Shown here one piece after another: positions 1 to 7,001 of a stretch of 7,001 nt of DNA. This stretch comes from a virus: positions 1-7,001 of the IMG/VR virus record IMGVR_UViG_3300011982_000003; one strand, 5' to 3'. A model generated the notes under the pieces. The model saw nothing but the letters and a program-made list of their open reading frames with translations. It was not told the origin of the DNA and ran no database searches. The position numbers and the translations under genes were made by a program. Numbering within the stretch: the stretch's first letter is position 1; every line of letters begins with the position of its first letter.

Positions 1-77
1 GTTCGGAGACGCACATTTATTCCCAGCCTGCTGGAATGTTGTTGCCCGTTTTCCAGATGTTTTTGAACCCTAATGAC
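1..77. repeat. Terminal redundancy: 1..77 is identical to 6925..7001, so the window is a circular genome of 6,924 nt written with a 77-nt overlap
   Basis: Both ends match exactly when read directly (gttcggagacgcacatttattcccagcctgctggaatgttgttgcccgttttccagatgtttttgaaccctaatgac). The VP1 reading frame continues through the junction without a break. Confidence 0.9.
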
Positions 78-2102
78 CATGTATCAGTCGATACAAGTTC
101 AATTGTTCAGGCGCAAACACTTCAAGGTCGCCCGTTCTTAGGAATGAAACAGAATTTTGCGTTCTATTTTGTTCCTGCTCGTTTGATGTGTAGCTACTCG
201 AAAGCTTTCTTTAGCGGTGTAAATCCGAAAAATACGGTTACGAGTGCAAAGCTTGTTGCAGACAACCCTGCGGGTTCTGTTTTGAAAGTTCCTACCTTTA
301 AGCCTTATCAGGTGTTTGTCCGTTTTGCCGGCATTCCTGATGAAACTTCACAATTGCTTGACGTGAAGTGGATTGAGTCTAAGTTCGGTGGTTCTGCTGT
401 TAAAGACCCTCTTGCTCCTGGTAAGAATGAAGGCTTTTCAAGTGGTGGTTATTTTGGCAATCGTCGTGCTAAGTCTTCCGGTGTTGATGAGTTTACGGAG
501 GAAGAAGCAAAAGAAGCAGCTGCAAAGCCAAACCCTGTATTTAATGTTCCTGGAGATGCGTTTTTCAAGAAACCTTACGGTGATATTCTGGCGCAAAACA
601 GTAATATCGTTGATGCACTCGGCTATGATATGTTGTCTTCTTATGTTCGTTTTTGTGACATGATGAAGTACGGTGCTATGCCTTACATCGGCGAAAGTGT
701 CAATATCAAGTCTGTAACGCCGGAATTGATGAAATACGAAGCTAATTTATATTATTGGCTTGCGTATCAGAAGATATATCAAGACCACTTCCTTGATAGT
801 AACTATGAGTTTGTCAATCCTCGTTCTTATAACGTAGATGATTTGTATGACCCGACTGATTCCTCTTTCAAGTTCGATTTTGCGAGTACGAAAGAGGCTT
901 TGGACCGTGCTGTAGACATCTTTTCACCTCGTTATATCAAGTACGAGAAAGATTTGTTGTCTAACATTCACCCGTCACCGCTGTTCCTCGATGATGTTTC
1001 ATCTACGATTAAGACTTTTGTAGGTTCCGCCCCCGTTACGGGTGGCTCCTTAGATGGTCGCGGAAAAGCTTTTAACCCTTACAAAAATTCCGATACGCTT
1101 GTGTCGACGATTTGGAACGGTTCTGCGCAGTCGGAAACGATTATGTCAGCTGCTCAATTGCGCAACTTGATGGCCCTTGACAAGATGGCTCAGATTTCAA
1201 GTCGTGCACCTAAGACGTACAAAGGACAGATGTTGGCACATTACGGTGTGAATGTATCTGATGACCTAATGGAAAGTTTCTATCTCGGTGGTTTCCAAAA
1301 GGCGTTGGAAGTTTCTCCGGTTATTGCCACGTCAGATGGTAAATCGGATGATGGGTCTACCAATTTTGGACAGCAAGGAAGTTATATTGACTCTGCGCAG
1401 AGTGGACATATCAATTTCGATGCTCGTGAACATGGTGTCCTGATGTGTCTTTCTTGGTTCTCTCCCTCTTCTTTGTATGATGCTGACGGTATCGACGCTT
1501 TCAATACGAAGATGTTCCGCGAGGATTATTTTGTCCCCGAAGTCGAGGACCTTGGTATGCAGCCTATCGAGTATGCCCGTTTGTTGCCTCCTTGGATAAA
1601 GTTCGGTGCATATCGTCTGCCGGACATGACCGGATTGTCTGCAGAGTATTTGGCTACGCATAAGAAAGAGGTAGAAGATGCGTATAATGCTACGTATAAG
1701 CGTGCTTCGCTTCGTGCTCGTGGTCGCACCTTAGGTGGTGAAAGTAATGCTATCGATGTGTCAAGAGTGTATGGCTGGCAGCCTCGGTATCACGAGTTCA
1801 AAGCCGGTGCGGATTATATCCACGGAGAATTCAAGACAGGCCGCTCTATGCAGGTTCTTACTGTTCATCGTCCTACGGTGTTTAATAAGGAATTAGGCTT
1901 GAATGTTCGAAGTTCGTTTGCGTATGATAATACGTACCACGGTGTGCCTGCTTCGTTTTTGTATGTGGACCCTGCATGTACTAATGAAGTTGTGGAAGTC
2001 AATTATGACGGTACCGAGAAGACAGACCCGTTCCGCATCACTACGCACTTTGCAGTGAGTTATATTTCTGACATGTCCGTTTCCGGCATGCCTCGTGTTT
2101 AA
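1..2102 (+). CDS. Major capsid protein VP1 (F-like), 5'-partial in this linear window; the true start is at 6864
   Basis: A 688-aa ORF extended upstream through the junction. It is the largest ORF in a small circular genome that also encodes a rolling-circle Rep with a YVAKY motif, so the Microviridae capsid assignment is by context plus the conserved N-terminus. Its length matches the large VP1 of gut or Bacteroidota microviruses. Confidence 0.85.
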   Translation, partial: SETHIYSQPAGMLLPVFQMFLNPNDHVSVDTSSIVQAQTLQGRPFLGMKQNFAFYFVPARLMCSYSKAFFSGVNPKNTVTSAKLVADNPAGSVLKVPTFKPYQVFVRFAGIPDETSQLLDVKWIESKFGGSAVKDPLAPGKNEGFSSGGYFGNRRAKSSGVDEFTEEEAKEAAAKPNPVFNVPGDAFFKKPYGDILAQNSNIVDALGYDMLSSYVRFCDMMKYGAMPYIGESVNIKSVTPELMKYEANLYYWLAYQKIYQDHFLDSNYEFVNPRSYNVDDLYDPTDSSFKFDFASTKEALDRAVDIFSPRYIKYEKDLLSNIHPSPLFLDDVSSTIKTFVGSAPVTGGSLDGRGKAFNPYKNSDTLVSTIWNGSAQSETIMSAAQLRNLMALDKMAQISSRAPKTYKGQMLAHYGVNVSDDLMESFYLGGFQKALEVSPVIATSDGKSDDGSTNFGQQGSYIDSAQSGHINFDAREHGVLMCLSWFSPSSLYDADGIDAFNTKMFREDYFVPEVEDLGMQPIEYARLLPPWIKFGAYRLPDMTGLSAEYLATHKKEVEDAYNATYKRASLRARGRTLGGESNAIDVSRVYGWQPRYHEFKAGADYIHGEFKTGRSMQVLTVHRPTVFNKELGLNVRSSFAYDNTYHGVPASFLYVDPACTNEVVEVNYDGTEKTDPFRITTHFAVSYISDMSVSGMPRV

Positions 2103-2120
2103 CGTGTAAGATGTTTTATT

Positions 2121-2546
2121 ATGAAGAATTGTTATTTAAGACGCTGGCAGATTGAAAATGCTAATGCTTTTAGTCCTGCACAGGAGCAAGTTGTGACGGT
2201 AGACCAGGAGGCTACACAGTTGTTTGAAAAACTGAACCCCGTGTTGTCAAACGGTCATCGTGTGAATGTCATTACCCAGCTTGTTAACAAGAATGTGCCG
2301 CGTGAGGTTGCCGATGTTATTGCACAGTTGGTAGTTAATATACCGCACGATGACAAGAACAAGGGCTACACTGACGAGCAAATTAAGCAGATGATAGTGA
2401 GCCGTCATTATCAGAATGAAATTGAGCTTGAGGAAGTCCGTAAATCGCTTGATGCTGTGCTCGGAGATATGTTCCCAGATGAGCCTGCTTCGCAAGAGCC
2501 TGCTTTGCAGGAACCTACTCCACCGTCTGGCTCTAAACCCGAATAG
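2121..2546 (+). CDS. Hypothetical acidic 141-aa protein with a P/E/Q-rich C-terminus, possibly an internal scaffolding (VP3-like) protein
   Basis: Clean ORF on the same strand, tightly packed between the VP1 stop (2102) and the VP2 start (2549). The predicted protein is net acidic and largely helical, and is the size of gokushovirus VP3. No motif was recognised, so the functional call is only positional. Confidence 0.5.
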   Translation: MKNCYLRRWQIENANAFSPAQEQVVTVDQEATQLFEKLNPVLSNGHRVNVITQLVNKNVPREVADVIAQLVVNIPHDDKNKGYTDEQIKQMIVSRHYQNEIELEEVRKSLDAVLGDMFPDEPASQEPALQEPTPPSGSKPE

Positions 2547-2548
2547 TT

Positions 2549-3502
2549 ATGAATTATTTCAAGTTAGTAAGGGGAGAGCCTCTCTCCCCTACTTACGACA
2601 ATCGTAAGCAAATTGCGCCTTTACTTGCTGCTACTATACCTGCTGCCGTCTCGGCTGTCGGTTCTTTGGTCGGTAATTCAATGAATAATAAGGCTATACG
2701 TGAAAACAATCAGATGCAGCAGCGTCTTGTTGAAGAACAAAAAGCCTATAATGCACCGGACCAGCAAGTCGCTCGAATGCGTCAGGCAGGTTTGAACCCT
2801 TATATGATGCTTGGACAGCTTAATAGTGGTAATCAGGAAAGTGTTGCGACAACGACGCCGGAGAACAACGACACAGCCGTTAATGGTATTCTTAGTGCAG
2901 CTAATCAAGCCATTCAAGGCTTAGTAGGTCAGAGTCAAGTTCAGTTGAACAATGAGACAGCTAAGAAGACTGCGAGTGAAACCGCGCTTAATGAAATCGA
3001 TGCCCGAACGCGTGCAGCTGAAAATGATGCCCGGATTAATGCACTTGTAAAGCAGGGTAAGTTGACCGAAGAACAAGCCGAGGAAATTCGTCTAAAGAAC
3101 GACCTCACATTGTTGAATTGGGACGCTTTGTCGAAACAGTATAATATTCAAAATCAGAATGTACAAGCTGATACGAATTTGAAGACTGTAGAGAAGAATT
3201 CGAAAGATTTCCATCTACGGCAAGATAAGAAGTGGACAGATAAAGAACGTTATGCTGCTTTGCGTCTTCAAGGTACGCAATCTTTGTTGAATAATAAGCA
3301 ATCAAATGTGTTGAAACATGACGGAAATACTGCTTATTGGCGCTCTTTGGATAGTCACGTTTCCTATTTGGAGAATCAGCGCTTACATCGGTATAATCGT
3401 CAGTATTATCGTTCACCGATTAGTGACCGGAATTGGTCGCGTGTTCCTTTTGTTTCCGGTGCTGGAAGTAGTACGGGAGCTTTATTGAAACTTATCAAAT
3501 AA
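2549..3502 (+). CDS. Minor capsid / DNA pilot protein (VP2, H-like)
   Basis: 317 aa. An N-terminal hydrophobic stretch (IAPLLAATIPAAVSAVGSLVGNSM) is followed by a long Q/N/E/A-rich region predicted helical or coiled-coil. The MRQAGLNPYMMLG motif resembles the conserved AGLNP segment of microvirus VP2 proteins. The start is 2 nt after the preceding stop. Confidence 0.7.
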   Translation: MNYFKLVRGEPLSPTYDNRKQIAPLLAATIPAAVSAVGSLVGNSMNNKAIRENNQMQQRLVEEQKAYNAPDQQVARMRQAGLNPYMMLGQLNSGNQESVATTTPENNDTAVNGILSAANQAIQGLVGQSQVQLNNETAKKTASETALNEIDARTRAAENDARINALVKQGKLTEEQAEEIRLKNDLTLLNWDALSKQYNIQNQNVQADTNLKTVEKNSKDFHLRQDKKWTDKERYAALRLQGTQSLLNNKQSNVLKHDGNTAYWRSLDSHVSYLENQRLHRYNRQYYRSPISDRNWSRVPFVSGAGSSTGALLKLIK

Positions 3503-3548
3503 TTATTTATTTGGTTATGTGTAATATTAATTTTTAATTTACGTTATT

Positions 3549-3635
3549 ATGAAAAAAGAGAATGTTTGGAAGCTTGTGTTACAGATTGCTGTTTCGGCGA
3601 TTACTGCACTTGCAACCGCTTTAGGTGTTAATTAA
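3549..3635 (+). CDS. Small predicted single-transmembrane peptide, 28 aa (MKKENVWKLVLQIAVSAITALATALGVN)
   Basis: Hand-translated ORF, below the ORF-track size cutoff. It has an N-terminal KK then a 20-residue hydrophobic helix. It is on the coding strand in a region otherwise without ORFs, immediately upstream of a second similar peptide and a terminator-like hairpin. Confidence 0.4.
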   Translation: MKKENVWKLVLQIAVSAITALATALGVN

Positions 3636-3645
3636 TTTATTTGTT

Positions 3646-3762
3646 ATGTCGTATAAGAAAATATTTTTTACGATAGCAATTGTTTTTATGTTTATTTATC
3701 TGCCGGTTATCCTTGTTGGATTGATTTTTCTAATTGGTGATTGGTTAGGTATTAAAATTTAA
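3646..3762 (+). CDS. Small predicted single-transmembrane peptide, 38 aa (MSYKKIFFTIAIVFMFIYLPVILVGLIFLIGDWLGIKI), candidate holin-like or single-gene-lysis-like membrane protein
   Basis: Hand-translated ORF starting 10 nt after the previous peptide stop. It has an N-terminal basic KK, about 25 contiguous hydrophobic residues and a short polar C-terminus. A hairpin plus T-tract follows 13 nt after its stop. Confidence 0.4.
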   Translation: MSYKKIFFTIAIVFMFIYLPVILVGLIFLIGDWLGIKI

Positions 3763-3774
3763 TCTCTCTTAAAT

Positions 3775-3808
3775 GAGCGTGGCTTCGGTCACGCTTATTA
3801 TTTGCTGT
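3775..3808 (+). terminator. Rho-independent terminator-like hairpin (GAGCGTGGC-TTCG-GTCACGCTT, about 9 bp stem, TTCG tetraloop) followed by the T-rich ATTATTTGCTGTT
   Basis: Seen directly: positions 3776..3783 pair with 3788..3795, with one G-U and otherwise Watson-Crick pairs, then a T-rich run. It lies just downstream of the two small peptide ORFs. Confidence 0.45.
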
Positions 3809-4076
3809 TCGTTAGGTGAGCGTGAGCGAACATAGAATATGTTTTTTACCTTTACAGCTTGGGCCCTTGTGGCCGAACTGCGCCTAACGCTTTTTATTTG
3901 TTTTGTGTCGTTAGACAAACGCAGTACGGCGCAGCCGCCTCCTAAAGACTTTAAAAACTCTATTAATTTTGCACATCAACATTTTATCCGTATCTGTATG
4001 CGCGTGCGCGTCTCGTGCGCGCGTATGCTATACGTAGTTTGATGTGCTTAATTTGTTGTGATTAATTTGTTCCTGT

Positions 4077-4093
4077 CGGGCACGTAGTGCCCG
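4077..4093. other. Perfect GC-rich hairpin CGGGCAC-GTA-GTGCCCG (7 bp stem, 3-nt loop) in AT-rich non-coding DNA
   Basis: Exact inverted repeat read directly. There is no following T-run, so it is not a classical terminator. It is a candidate ssDNA structural signal such as a complementary-strand origin or packaging site. Confidence 0.5.
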
Positions 4094-4112
4094 CAAAACA
4101 TTTGGTAGGGGT

Positions 4113-4134
4113 TCGGGGGCTGCCAGGCCCCCGA
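4113..4134. other. Perfect GC-rich hairpin TCGGGGGC-TGCCAG-GCCCCCGA (8 bp stem, 6-nt loop)
   Basis: Exact inverted repeat read directly, 20 nt downstream of the first hairpin. It is flanked by G-runs (GGTAGGGG) upstream and the AT-rich CTATAAAAG downstream. Confidence 0.5.
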
Positions 4135-4415
4135 CTATAAAAGTTGTTGTATATAGTTTATATTATTGATATTCAGTTACTTATAATTGTTTATTTCTAT
4201 GCGTCGATAGACGGAACGTCGTTTGTATCGCTGCATATCTCTATTATTTTGTTATTATCAGTTTCCACGTCAGTGGCGCACGGCTCCCGTCCTGCGTACT
4301 CTACTCTCGACATATATAATAAAACTGACAGCTATCCAAGCACTATAAAACGCTTTAATTATTAATATTCCTTAAAAAAAAACGTTTATCATACTGCAGA
4401 TTATATTTTTCTGTG

Positions 4416-4423
4416 TATATTTG
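4416..4423 (+). promoter_or_regulatory. TATATTTG, a match to the Bacteroidota sigma-A -7 element TAnnTTTG, 31 nt upstream of the peptidase start codon
   Basis: The motif is seen directly. An upstream -33 TTTG element at canonical spacing is not clear, only a T-rich ATTTTTCTG. Assigning it as a promoter is inference from the established Bacteroides promoter consensus. Confidence 0.3.
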
Positions 4424-4453
4424 CGAATGTAAATACTAATTAACTAAAAAGTT

Positions 4454-4891
4454 ATGATGCTTGAAGATTGTAAATTGTCCCGCCATTTCACATTGTTTGA
4501 GATGTGCAATGTAAAAAAGTACGGTCGTTTTAATGAGCCTAACGCGAACGAGATTGCTAACTTAAAACAGTTGTGTTCGTTTCTCGAAATGCTTCGTGAC
4601 CGATTAGGCGGTTTATCTATAATTGTCAATTCTGGTTATCGTTCTAAGAACATTAATTTGCATGTAGGTGGTGTTCCCACCTCTGACCATGTAAAAGGTC
4701 TTGCTGCAGATATTCGCGTGATTGGTTATACCCCTATCAGGCTCGCAAAGTTTATTCGTAGCAATGATTTTCTTAACGGTTTTGTAGGTCAAGTAATCAT
4801 TTACCCTACGTTCTTGCATGTGTCGATAAATCGTTTCAAGCATAAGTCACAGTATCTAATAAAAAAAGGTAGTCGTTATGTCCCGTATTAA
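4454..4891 (+). CDS. Zinc metallopeptidase of the LAS / peptidase M15 (M15_3-like) family, a putative peptidoglycan D,D- or L-Ala-D-Glu peptidase (endolysin-like or entry cell-wall hydrolase)
   Basis: 145 aa. SGYRSKNINLHVGG is followed by SDHVKGLAADI, which matches the SxHxxGxAxD zinc-binding signature of VanY / M15 / hedgehog-fold peptidases. A downstream His in FLHVSIN serves as the third ligand. The first ATG is used (MML...), and there is no N-terminal signal peptide or TM segment. Confidence 0.75.
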   Translation: MMLEDCKLSRHFTLFEMCNVKKYGRFNEPNANEIANLKQLCSFLEMLRDRLGGLSIIVNSGYRSKNINLHVGGVPTSDHVKGLAADIRVIGYTPIRLAKFIRSNDFLNGFVGQVIIYPTFLHVSINRFKHKSQYLIKKGSRYVPY

Positions 4892-5063
4892 GTTGCAATA
4901 TCCTATAATTGAGCAATGCGAATTATCGATATACTTTGAGAGACGTATATCAAAGCATGGTGATAAGGATATCATTTTGTGGCGTGTTGAGCAATCAGAT
5001 GGTACATATCACTGTTTTTCAAGTTTTGATGCTGTAATCGATTTTGTAAAGTTGAATTTCTGA
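4878..5063 (+). CDS. Hypothetical 61-aa protein
   Basis: ORF overlapping the peptidase 3' end by 14 nt. Its stop overlaps the rep start in a TGATG arrangement, suggesting translational coupling. No motif was recognised. It is near charge-neutral, so it is not an obvious J/VP8-type basic DNA-binding protein. Confidence 0.45.
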   Translation: MSRIKLQYPIIEQCELSIYFERRISKHGDKDIILWRVEQSDGTYHCFSSFDAVIDFVKLNF

Positions 5064-6841
5064 TGCACCCTTTAGTTAGTCTCGTCAAAGAGAAAGAAGT
5101 GTTGTTACCTTGTGAACACCCGGTGTTGACAGAAAATAACGGTCGTGTTTATGCCCATGCCTGCGGTAAGTGTCGCATGTGTATGGAAAAGAAAGCACAG
5201 ATTTGGCGTATTAGATTAAAACAAGAGTGTGAAGATAACCGTTTTTGTATATTTTTTACCCTTACTTATGATAATATAAATGTTCCCTTTTTTCAACCTG
5301 CTAAAGACGCTGCTTGCTATGTACTCGATGGTGCGCAAGGATATCAGTTTAAAGGAGATGATTTCGTTTCTTATTCAAAAAGATTGTCCGTTCCTTATAA
5401 GGATTGTGGCGATGTGCTACCTATTGTTACCAATTTTGATGTTTGTAACTCTTTTGCTGTTGTTTCACGTACAGATGTTCAAAAGTTTTTGAAACGCTTC
5501 CGGTGGCATTTGCAACACCTTTTGACTAAACATTACAAGTTGAAATTTTATGACCAAATTTTCCATTGGACGCGACAGTTAGGTTATGATGGAACTGTAA
5601 AGTTTGAGGATTGGTTGTCTGATTTAGATGATGATACCTATACGATATATAATGAAGTTTATCAATATTATAAAAATAAATATGAAAAAGAAAAAGAACA
5701 AGCAAAGCAAGTCACGCGTTACTTCATTTGTAGCGAGTACACTCCGAGCACTTTCCGACCCCACTATCATGGTCTCTTTTGGTTTGAGAATGAAAAGGCG
5801 TACCAATTCGCCTTTAGGTGTATACGTAAGGCTTGGACGTTGTGCCATCAAAGGAATATCGACGTCCAATCTGTCACCGGCAACGCTTACGCCTATGTTG
5901 CGAAATATGTTACTGGCAATCTTAATTTGCCAAAGGTTCTACAAGCTAAATCTACCCGCACGTTCTGTCTGGCTTCTAAAGGTCCAGCTGTCGGGTATAA
6001 GTCGTTTAGTTCAGAAAGAGTATGCGAAATGTACAACCAACGAAATATATTCAGAAGTATTGACACAGTCACAAAGCAAGGAAAACAAGTTAATGTTTAC
6101 GTTGTTCCCCCGAGTGTTGTATCTCGATATTTCCCAAAGTGTTATCAGTATAGCCAGATATCTGATACACATAAATTTCGTGTATATACGCGATTTATCA
6201 AAATACAAAGATATGGTGACGTCGAAAAAATAGATATTCCTGCTTCTCTCGCGTGTTTACAATGGTATAAAGAGAATACGCATTTATATCCTCGGAGAAC
6301 TGTTGATGAATTAGGTGATAGTATGAACGCTGAGACTCCTTGGTTTCATTCTGCAGACATCAATGCCGCTCGTGCATGTTTAAGATGGTGTGTTAAGTAT
6401 GATTGTCACCCAAACCATTATATTGCGATGTTGGATTGGTTTCATAACGAGTATGCACAATATAATTTGTATCAACAATATCGGTATATGGAGCGTTTAC
6501 AGCGTGTTGTGCGTTACCGTGCTGATGAATACTATTCAAAGGATATAGATATAAGGTTAGATGATGTCAAGATATGTATAGATTTTACGTTCTTGGCGTG
6601 TTTACCGTTCTATTTGAAAGATGCTATTGATAGGCCTGATTTGTGTGCTATTGCAGAGAGTTACGGCATACATATATCTAACTTCTATTATCAAGGTTTG
6701 TTGTCACGTGATAAGGTTAATAGATACTATGAATATAACCAGAAGCATTTTGCCGAGTATCGACAAAAAGTTTATGATAGGTTGATATTGGCCGATAAAA
6801 CTAAGAAAGCTAATTCCTCTGTTTTGGAAGAAGTATATTAA
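5063..6841 (+). CDS. Rolling-circle replication initiation protein (VP4 / phiX174 gene A-like)
   Basis: 592 aa with the three RCR motifs in order: motif I FFTLTYD (about 5253..5273), motif II HYHGLFW (HYH at 5762..5770), and motif III YAYVAKYVTGN with paired catalytic tyrosines YVAKY (5894..5908), as in the phiX174 A protein. The N-terminus carries a Cys/His cluster, C-x-H...H-x-C-x2-C-x2-C. Confidence 0.9.
   Translation: MHPLVSLVKEKEVLLPCEHPVLTENNGRVYAHACGKCRMCMEKKAQIWRIRLKQECEDNRFCIFFTLTYDNINVPFFQPAKDAACYVLDGAQGYQFKGDDFVSYSKRLSVPYKDCGDVLPIVTNFDVCNSFAVVSRTDVQKFLKRFRWHLQHLLTKHYKLKFYDQIFHWTRQLGYDGTVKFEDWLSDLDDDTYTIYNEVYQYYKNKYEKEKEQAKQVTRYFICSEYTPSTFRPHYHGLFWFENEKAYQFAFRCIRKAWTLCHQRNIDVQSVTGNAYAYVAKYVTGNLNLPKVLQAKSTRTFCLASKGPAVGYKSFSSERVCEMYNQRNIFRSIDTVTKQGKQVNVYVVPPSVVSRYFPKCYQYSQISDTHKFRVYTRFIKIQRYGDVEKIDIPASLACLQWYKENTHLYPRRTVDELGDSMNAETPWFHSADINAARACLRWCVKYDCHPNHYIAMLDWFHNEYAQYNLYQQYRYMERLQRVVRYRADEYYSKDIDIRLDDVKICIDFTFLACLPFYLKDAIDRPDLCAIAESYGIHISNFYYQGLLSRDKVNRYYEYNQKHFAEYRQKVYDRLILADKTKKANSSVLEEVY
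5628..6233 (+). CDS. Candidate overprinted ORF (201 codons) in the +1 frame inside rep, with a highly basic N-terminus (MKKKKNKQSKSR...). Speculative.
   Basis: It is open for 201 codons in an AT-rich genome where alternate frames normally close quickly. Microviruses are known to overprint genes inside gene A (phiX B, K, A*). There is no independent evidence, and the basic N-terminus partly comes from an A-rich tract. Confidence 0.15.
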   Translation: MMIPIRYIMKFINIIKINMKKKKNKQSKSRVTSFVASTLRALSDPTIMVSFGLRMKRRTNSPLGVYVRLGRCAIKGISTSNLSPATLTPMLRNMLLAILICQRFYKLNLPARSVWLLKVQLSGISRLVQKEYAKCTTNEIYSEVLTQSQSKENKLMFTLFPRVLYLDISQSVISIARYLIHINFVYIRDLSKYKDMVTSKK

Positions 6842-6863
6842 TGTTTAACTAAATTATTGTATT

Positions 6864-7001
6864 ATGTCTAAAGTTCCAAAAATTGACGTTTCCCCTGCGA
6901 AACGACCTCGGAATGGTTTTGACCGTTCGGAGACGCACATTTATTCCCAGCCTGCTGGAATGTTGTTGCCCGTTTTCCAGATGTTTTTGAACCCTAATGA
7001 C
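6864..7001 (+). CDS. Major capsid protein VP1 (F-like), N-terminal part. The gene wraps across the circular junction and continues at 1..2102, giving about 720 aa in total.
   Basis: ATG at 6864 is the first start after an in-frame TAA at 6846..6848. Translation gives MSKVPKIDVSPAKRPRNGFDRSETHIYSQPAGMLLPVFQ..., a typical microvirus VP1 N-terminus (K/R-rich, RNxFD motif). It is in frame with the ORF 36..2102 (position 36 equals 6960, and 6960-6864=96). Confidence 0.85.
   Translation, partial: MSKVPKIDVSPAKRPRNGFDRSETHIYSQPAGMLLPVFQMFLNPND

Follow-up and report, generated by a model that had tools for sequence, protein, structure and literature searches.

A leaderless M15 zinc peptidase, putatively the endolysin of an Alpavirinae-like microvirus, and its candidate membrane partner

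An open reading frame (ORF) encoding a 145-residue protein lies at positions 4454-4891, on the + strand, of a viral DNA of 7,001 nucleotides (IMG/VR virus record IMGVR_UViG_3300011982_000003, positions 1 to 7,001), the whole of which is called the window here. A preliminary description had proposed that the protein is a LAS/M15-family zinc peptidoglycan peptidase encoded by a microvirus and that such an enzyme is unusual for this virus family. Here we describe the protein and its genomic surroundings. We consider it a likely endolysin, encoded by a temperate Alpavirinae-like microvirus whose hosts are oral Prevotellaceae. To reach its substrate the protein would need a breached membrane, and two small ORFs of the same genome, pep28 and tm2, are the likeliest breaching agents.

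Results

The ORF at 4454-4891 encodes an M15A zinc metallopeptidase

The 145-residue protein is a single-domain zinc metallopeptidase of MEROPS family M15, subfamily A (Pfam Peptidase_M15_3), with the LAS fold. Compared with the Pfam profile PF08291 (Peptidase_M15_3), it scored 67.2 bits (gathering threshold 23.2; E 1.6e-18) over profile positions 18-107 of 108. The SxHxxGxAxD motif is present as S77-D-H79-V-K-G82-L-A84-A-D86 and provides the His and Asp zinc ligands; its S, H, G, A and D show no variation across 34 homologues and align with the motif containing H154 and D161 of 1lbu. The third zinc ligand, H122, lies within F120-L-H122 and is invariant, and the residue two positions before it is aromatic in all 34 homologues. 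Also invariant is R63, in NSGYRS, which aligns with NGGFRS of 1lbu and is the equivalent of 1LBU R138, an arginine that binds the substrate carboxylate. The fold comprises a central antiparallel sheet and flanking helices, with the metal site on the sheet. The profile score, the conserved ligands and the alignment with 1lbu bear out the LAS/M15 assignment of the preliminary description, and the H-x6-D...H zinc site that it had named is formed by H79, D86 and H122.

The peptidase is under purifying selection, with 43 invariant columns in an alignment of clade members that are 50-97% identical. Its best matches have 69% and 61.5% amino acid identity among GenBank entries and 97% among unannotated metagenome proteins, and its closest PHROG family is that of an endolysin. 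A search of one representative genome per GTDB species yielded no close relative of the peptidase clade alignment, the best matches (42% identity) being in cyanobacterial and acidobacterial metagenome-assembled genomes.

Judged by hydropathy only, the protein has no hydrophobic leader: the highest 19-residue window is 1.26 and the first 30 residues average -0.62, in agreement with the earlier statement that it lacks a signal peptide. The position of 1LBU H195 is occupied by F120, and at H+2 the protein has S124 where the endolysin LysPM1 has Asp. In VanX, T5 and ChiX-type enzymes the residue that acts as general base or acid is Asp or Glu. Possible candidates for the general base are D78, which is invariant within the clade only, and E16, which is invariant in 34 of 34 homologues. 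By analogy with characterised enzymes, zinc-dependent muralytic activity is predicted.

The window is a complete circular microvirus genome

Bases 1-77 are repeated exactly at 6925-7001, a 77-nt assembly overlap, and the window is therefore a complete circular genome of 6924 nt. All its genes are on the + strand. Its features are the following.

6864-7001, continuing at 78-2102 across the junction, + strand: major capsid protein (Phage_F, phrog_514; assigned by Pfam and PHROG)
2121-2546, + strand: 141-aa protein
2549-3502, + strand: DNA pilot protein
3503-4453: gene-poor stretch
3549-3635, + strand: pep28, an unannotated 28-aa ORF (MKKENVWKLVLQIAVSAITALATALGVN) with a Lys-rich N-terminus and one transmembrane-like helix; candidate holin-like partner
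3646-3762, + strand: tm2, a strongly hydrophobic 38-aa ORF (MSYKKIFFTIAIVFMFIYLPVILVGLIFLIGDWLGIKI, beginning MSYKK) directly after pep28
3772-3809, + strand: terminator-like hairpin AGCGTGGC-TTCG-GTCACGCT with a T-rich run, after tm2
4385-4410, + strand: dif-like core of the attachment site, TTTATCATACTGCAGATTATATTTTT, 44 nt before the ATG of the peptidase gene
4416-4423, + strand: TATATTTG, about 30 nt ahead of the peptidase start codon; putative promoter of the operon formed by peptidase, ORF61, Rep and capsid genes
4454-4891, + strand: M15A / Peptidase_M15_3 zinc peptidoglycan peptidase of 145 aa, putative endolysin
4878-5063, + strand: ORF61, 61 aa
5063-6841, + strand: replication initiator (Rep)

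The capsid, pilot and Rep genes confirm that the peptidase is encoded by a microvirus. At 6.9 kb, the genome lies at the large end of the microvirus range. A capsid ORF start at position 36 was rejected as a linearisation artefact; from the true start at 6864 the capsid N-terminus reads MSKVPKIDVSPAKRPRNGFD, which agrees with the capsids of relatives. In the gene of the 141-aa protein, a 15-nt tandem duplication at 2481-2510 (GAGCCTGCTTCGCAA / GAGCCTGCTTTGCAG) gives rise to a repeated EPASQ/EPALQ near the C-terminus.

The closest GenBank genomes are the human saliva microviruses OR149003 (Microvirus D_HF5_96) and OR148991 (D_HF4_111), with about 70% nucleotide identity over 66-77% of the genome, and both records carry the annotation "peptidase M15". 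ORF61 encodes a conserved, soluble protein whose gene overlaps the peptidase stop by 14 nt and shares one base with the Rep start. Most clade-A genomes have this gene, which accompanies the peptidase in recombinants; tblastn gave no full-length match in L033, L061, L064 or L065, and the Pfam and PHROG scans with ORF61 returned noise only (E 0.02 or worse).

M15 peptidases are widespread in microviruses

Peptidases of PF08291 have been described in 11 human-associated Alpavirinae and Gokushovirinae by Roux et al. 2012 (PLoS One 7:e40418, PMC3394797), who inferred horizontal acquisition of these genes and proposed that the enzymes are endolysins, dissolving the wall when infection ends. In the work of Kirchberger et al. 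2022 (PMC9239249), peptidases are listed as recurrent lysis-associated accessory genes in many microvirus families, and a peptidase region of about 700 nt is documented as swapped between distant microviruses. An M15 peptidase, considered lytic, is also present in five of six cultured roseophage microviruses and in most Occultatumvirinae (PMC11499846). In the GenBank phage collection, 346 records match the window peptidase, roughly 90 of them with microvirus-type organism names, and an M15 peptidase gene was found in 32 of 61 near-complete relatives that we fetched via the capsid protein. The enzyme belongs to a class known in microviruses since 2012 and now routinely annotated, and the earlier view that it is unusual for the family does not hold.

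A short candidate membrane peptide co-occurs with the peptidase

Of the small ORFs in the gene-poor stretch, pep28 was examined for conservation and constraint. Its highest 19-residue hydropathy window is 2.09. No complete clade genome lacks it, its length is always 27-29 codons, and its motif ALTALxTxLGV is retained even where the capsids are only about 38% identical. Codon differences from close relatives are mostly synonymous (for example, 8 versus 3), and the synonymous/non-synonymous counts over all pairs are 884/1366 in frame, compared with 263/1973 and 64/2164 in the shifted frames. This frame-specific synonymous excess and the conserved length identify pep28 as a real gene. Within IMG/VR it is restricted to the window clade. 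In OR149003 (L001 in our set, with pep28 at 3621-3707) it is not annotated, and a 56-aa coding sequence in another frame is annotated at 3655-3825; since the conserved, constrained gene in this overlap is the 28-aa one, that coding sequence is probably spurious.

The neighbouring tm2 has a hydropathy of 3.02, and an ORF of the form MS(Y/A/R)KK followed by hydrophobic residues is found at the same position in most clade-A genomes, with a sequence more variable than that of pep28. From its sequence, tm2 is a candidate second membrane protein, which might be an antiholin, a holin or an outer-membrane disruptor. Pfam and PHROG scans with pep28 and tm2 gave noise only (E 0.02 or worse) and no match to a holin family, and no spanin-like genes were recognised. 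The idea that any short hydrophobic intergenic ORF could act as the partner was rejected, such ORFs being equally common without M15 and expected on a T-rich coding strand.

Among the near-complete relatives, pep28 is present in 16 of the 32 that are M15-positive and in none of the 29 that are M15-negative. Fifteen of the remaining 16 M15-positive genomes form a second lineage, in which the capsids are 21-25% identical to the query set and the M15 protein is a minimal form of 102 aa, about 30% identical to the window peptidase and 40% to that of Stenotrophomonas phage Salva. In all 15, a near-invariant 29-aa ORF, pepB (MKSETKSKIWSAIIAAAVSLLTSIAQIFS), ends just before the M15 start. Neither peptide is found in the last M15-positive genome, L042, which lacks a terminal repeat and whose relevant region may be cut. 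Taken together, a peptide of the pep28 or pepB type is found in 31 of 32 M15-positive and 0 of 29 M15-negative relatives.

With two further scans, the second lineage came to comprise 65 loci, found among L103-L181 (L110, 664-1062, is one of them). In every one of them pepB and M15 occur together, neither gene being found alone, with the peptide directly upstream, and in 55 the gap between the pepB stop and the M15 ATG is 3 nt. Variable sites in pepB are distributed over the three codon positions as 7/2/22, and the synonymous/non-synonymous counts are 6140/2169 in frame versus about 1000/7000 out of frame. The pep28 and pepB families are mutual best sub-threshold matches; hhalign aligned them with 80% probability (P 1.3e-5) over 21 columns, with W-x6-AVS-x2-T-x2-A in register, and by this comparison they are probably homologous. 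As read from the sequences, the layout and distribution of peptide and peptidase are as expected of a holin-endolysin pair.

The pepB frame is the same as that of M15 in 59 of the 65 loci, the two being separated by a stop (TAA 55, TAG 9, TGA 1) and one codon. Occasional readthrough of this stop would yield a membrane-anchored peptidase, which would not be essential since six of the 65 loci are out of frame. A peptide-peptidase fusion made by readthrough was rejected, given the TAA stop in 55 loci and the six loci out of frame, and it is inapplicable to the window. Several M15-negative relatives (L111, at 3889-4086, L112, L119, L122, L123 and L129) have a conserved ORF of about 65 aa, MKITSQQWIEIIKLISTFIIG(I/V)ITTLAVQSC..., whose features are a hydrophobic helix at the N-terminus, a VQSC resembling a lipobox and a tail rich in Ser/Thr. 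Its product may be an alternative lysis or membrane protein in peptidase-free phages.

The peptidase gene adjoins a dif-like attachment site

Two relatives, L005 and L003, whose peptidases are 97% and 68% identical to that of the window, are proviruses integrated within contigs far exceeding the length of a microvirus, in the order peptidase, ORF61, Rep, capsid, scaffold-like protein, pilot. A core with the pattern TTATCATA-N6-(A)TTATAT, resembling a dif site, is duplicated at both provirus junctions (L005 7322-7347 and 14053-14078; L003 ~9941-9965 and ~16598-16622), and both ends of each provirus map to window positions 4385-4410, which are therefore the crossover point. An interpretation of the conserved stretch just upstream of the peptidase as a promoter only was rejected, its first part being, by the provirus junctions, the attachment core. 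The flanks contain bacterial housekeeping genes, including those for PhoH, SAICAR synthase, RF-1 and ribosomal protein L33, and the RF-1 beside the L005 provirus falls into the same 90%-identity cluster as the RF-1 of Segatella (formerly Prevotella) oulorum.

No recombinase gene was found in the window by the ORF list or the Pfam and PHROG scans. For microvirus proviruses of Bacteroidales, the Alpavirinae, integration by XerC/D at dif has been modelled by Krupovic and Forterre 2011 (PMC3091885). Because of its provirus relatives, its dif-like core and the lack of an integrase, we take the window phage to be a temperate Alpavirinae-like microvirus, and because of the provirus flanks and the RF-1 adjacent to L005 we take its host to be a Gram-negative, Segatella-like member of the oral Prevotellaceae. 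The Bacteroidota host of the preliminary description is in line with this, and the provirus junctions indicate a specific oral Segatella/Prevotella host.

The genomes are mosaic, in the manner reported by Kirchberger et al. 2022. The peptidases of L005, L032 and L033 are 88-97% identical to that of the window while their capsids are merely 39-42% identical. The exchanged segment, 4385-5065 (attachment core to the end of ORF61), has 94% nucleotide identity with L005 7322-8002, and the Rep and capsid proteins of genomes that share the peptidase-ORF61 segment are 33-42% identical. As the block is bounded on its left by the attachment core, the exchange may be driven by recombination at Xer sites between elements resident in the same cell.

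Transcription signals and other non-coding elements

The octamer TATATTTG directly follows the attachment core, is conserved in clade A and fits TAnnTTTG, which is reportedly the -7 promoter consensus of Bacteroidota (Bayley et al. 2000). The whole window has two matches to TAnnTTTG on the + strand and three on both strands, compared with 7.4 expected. The other + strand match, TAATTTTG at 3964-3971, is non-coding and upstream of GC-rich hairpins; it might promote a short transcript or have arisen by chance. In a sigma-70 promoter scan, a model that is not applicable to Bacteroidota, sites were no commoner than in shuffled sequence. At the other end of the gene string, the hairpin at 3772-3809 is kept in L001, L002 and L005 with compensatory changes. 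Together, the putative promoter at 4416-4423 and this hairpin suggest one transcription unit that begins with the peptidase and follows the circle as far as 3762.

The gene-poor region 3450-4500 has no match in Rfam. Within it, 4258-4330 is a conserved structured non-coding element with an invariant outer stem, TCAGTTT...AAACTGA, around two hairpins, whose stems covary among 13 genomes (CCAC/GTGG, CCGA/TCGG, CCGC/GCGG; CGCACG.., CGTGCG.., CTCGCG..). The window copy alone folds unremarkably (z -1.25), the evidence for structure being the covariation. Beside the hairpins is an invariant unpaired CTTGAYATATATAGTAAAA, which resembles the origin nick region of phiX174, CAACTTGATATTAATAAC; the element is a candidate Rep nick site or origin. 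Three strong GC-rich DNA hairpins lie at 3990-4135 amid AT-rich non-coding DNA (minimum free energy -34.6 kcal/mol, z -6.05, with none of 200 shuffles equally stable). They are not conserved in OR149003 or OR148991. The single-stranded DNA (ssDNA) genome may use them as a complementary-strand origin or priming signal.

Discussion

A proposed route to lysis

According to the mechanism that we propose, the peptidase would be made in the cytoplasm together with the Rep and capsid proteins, which is probable because its gene is the first after the attachment site and a Bacteroidota-type promoter. Having no export signal, it would be cut off from the wall until the inner membrane is breached, and we agree with the preliminary description that a membrane-permeabilising partner would be required. 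The breaching agents would be pep28 and/or tm2, whose genes close the string that the peptidase gene opens, and once through, the enzyme would cut the peptide part of the peptidoglycan. With a single transcription unit, the timing of lysis would be set at the membrane step. The protein is taken as a cytoplasmic endolysin because its residues match those of the characterised endolysins LysPM1 and ST79 and because its homologues in double-stranded DNA (dsDNA) phages lie in lysis cassettes. A role in lysis rather than in entry, and above all a holin-like role of pep28 and tm2, are what we infer.

That pep28 in particular is the membrane partner of the peptidase is a tentative proposal drawn from sequence comparison, and we place it a little short of an even chance. 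The wider idea, that Alpavirinae-type microviruses have a tailed-phage-like two-component lysis whose membrane part is a single-helix peptide of 28-29 residues (pep28/pepB), may be correct, although we would not yet bet on it.

Several points weigh against these proposals. The general base of the peptidase is not assignable from sequence, which leaves catalytic details unreadable and the cleaved bond unpredictable. The similarity between pep28 and pepB is weak and may reflect shared transmembrane composition, and since there are just two lineages, the co-occurrence amounts to about two independent events. Typical holins have about 60-150 aa, and pep28 is shorter at 28. In the window, pep28 and the peptidase are not neighbours but about 800 nt apart, and short hydrophobic ORFs in general are present in 23 of 29 M15-negative and 29 of 32 M15-positive relatives. 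In the searchable literature we found no experiment showing lysis by an M15 peptidase of a microvirus.

Alternative explanations

The most serious rival, which we consider unlikely, keeps the peptidase as an endolysin but gives it another way to the wall, such as a membrane damaged by the pilot protein, an unrecognised overprinted lysis gene or the action of host factors. In that case pep28 and tm2 would have some other purpose, for example superinfection exclusion, assembly at the membrane or a phiX-E-like inhibition of wall synthesis. Besides the distance of pep28 and the abundance of small hydrophobic ORFs irrespective of M15, this rival can draw on the N-terminal hydrophobic segment of the pilot protein (hydropathy 1.77), on the other conserved small membrane ORFs in some M15-negative relatives and on overprinted genes, which are beyond computational exclusion (Kirchberger 2022, PMC9239249). 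What it leaves unaccounted for is the confinement of the pep28 and pepB families to M15-positive genomes, and the 3-nt spacer between pepB and M15 in 55 of 65 loci, which is a classic holin-endolysin layout (cf. MW202879).

The preliminary description had also offered a virion-associated entry enzyme, and gene context gives this no support. Here the peptidase would be carried in or on the virion and open the wall locally during DNA entry, in the manner of the virion-associated hydrolases of tailed phages. Microvirus DNA delivery does have to cross peptidoglycan, and the packaging of a few copies would be compatible with our results. The gene, however, lies between the attachment site and Rep, outside the structural block of capsid, 141-aa protein and pilot, and its product is a free catalytic domain of 145 aa to which no structural or anchoring domain is joined. 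The PHROG family closest to the protein, like its homologues in dsDNA phages, consists of endolysins from lysis cassettes. A peptidase is absent from about half of the related microviruses, whose entry route is presumably the same, and gokushovirus virions consist of VP1 and VP2 only (PMC3091885). We therefore regard an entry role as very improbable.

Least probable of all is that the peptidase is passenger DNA beside the attachment site, or a remodeller of the host wall expressed in the lysogen, with no lytic role: the gene does adjoin the dif-like crossover point, outermost in the provirus, in a module that moves between lineages (peptidases 88-97% identical with capsids 39-42%), and Roux 2012 inferred horizontal acquisition of such peptidases (PMC3394797), but the gene keeps invariant catalytic residues in every complete clade genome while capsids have diverged to about 38%, it is co-oriented with and overlaps the next gene of the Rep-capsid operon and is therefore expressed with the lytic genes, and gain by transfer is no argument against a role in lysis.

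Implications

On its own, the peptidase adds one sequence to a known class, and its potential importance lies in the lysis mechanism. No lysis pathway is known to be experimentally established in microviruses beyond the phiX group, and in the searchable literature we found neither an explanation of how an endolysin with no leader gets past the inner membrane in these phages of 6-7 kb nor a description of a co-occurring membrane peptide of 28-29 aa. If the proposal is true, pep28 and pepB would be among the smallest holin-like proteins, missed by gene callers because they have fewer than 30 codons, and M15 peptidase and peptide would be acquired, retained and lost jointly as one functional unit. 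A minimal holin would thereby be defined, and some ssDNA phages would be shown to lyse like tailed phages.

Comparison with known systems

The nearest counterparts are the microviruses of Roux 2012 and the records OR148991 and OR149003, which share the Pfam family, the virus group and the proposed endolysin role; the latter two also share the human saliva origin and the gene order peptidase, small ORF, Rep. They differ in that neither the paper nor the records describe a membrane partner. With the temperate Alpavirinae, the window phage has in common the capsid, pilot and Rep genes, the lack of an integrase and a dif-like site in a Bacteroidales chromosome.

Two characterised enzymes resemble the window peptidase closely. 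LysPM1, a 116-aa endolysin from Proteus phage Homer, depends on Zn2+ and has the triad H63/D70/H104, SxHxxGxAxD, (W/F)xH and R47 equivalent to 1LBU R138, in which D106, at H+2, is the proposed proton shuttle (PMC13461873). The M15A endolysin of Burkholderia phage ST79 has H77/D84/H119 and WxH. In zymograms it clears the peptidoglycan of E. coli, and it lyses Gram-negative cells that have been permeabilised; it is encoded alongside a holin, lysB and lysC (PMC5025407). All three are lone Peptidase_M15_3 domains of 116-145 aa with the same motifs, the arginine equivalent to 1LBU R138 and no signal or signal-anchor-release (SAR) sequence, and LysPM1 and ST79 attack Gram-negative walls after the membranes have been breached. 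The phages that encode these two, however, are tailed dsDNA phages and carry standard genes for holins and spanins; moreover, D106 of LysPM1 corresponds to Ser124 in the window peptidase. In 1LBU, by contrast, there is an extra N-terminal wall-binding domain and an H-x-H motif with the first His (H195) as general base. This position is not His in LysPM1 either, and as it is Phe120 in the window peptidase, substrate specificity is not transferable from 1LBU.

The nearest dsDNA-phage homologues, about 40% identical to the peptidase, are located in standard lysis cassettes. In that of Stenotrophomonas phage Salva, the genes are endolysin, holin/antiholin, holin, i-spanin and o-spanin, and in MW202879 a holin gene overlaps the start of the M15 gene. 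Common to these cassettes and the microviruses is a leaderless M15 endolysin genetically coupled to small membrane proteins, and the pepB-M15 pair of the second microvirus lineage shares the upstream, abutting layout. The candidate partner in the window differs in having merely 28-29 residues and one helix, and in the window clade pep28 and the peptidase are at opposite ends of the operon.

Protein E of phiX174, finally, also ends a microvirus infection by compromising the cell wall. It is a non-enzymatic membrane protein that inhibits MraY and blocks wall synthesis, whereas the window genome encodes a wall-degrading enzyme. The contrast that the preliminary description drew between the peptidase and protein E is valid for the phiX-like subfamily and does not extend to microviruses beyond it. 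Since the window genome has a wall-degrading enzyme and not an E-type inhibitor, its mechanism would resemble that of tailed phages (Roux 2012, PMC3394797).

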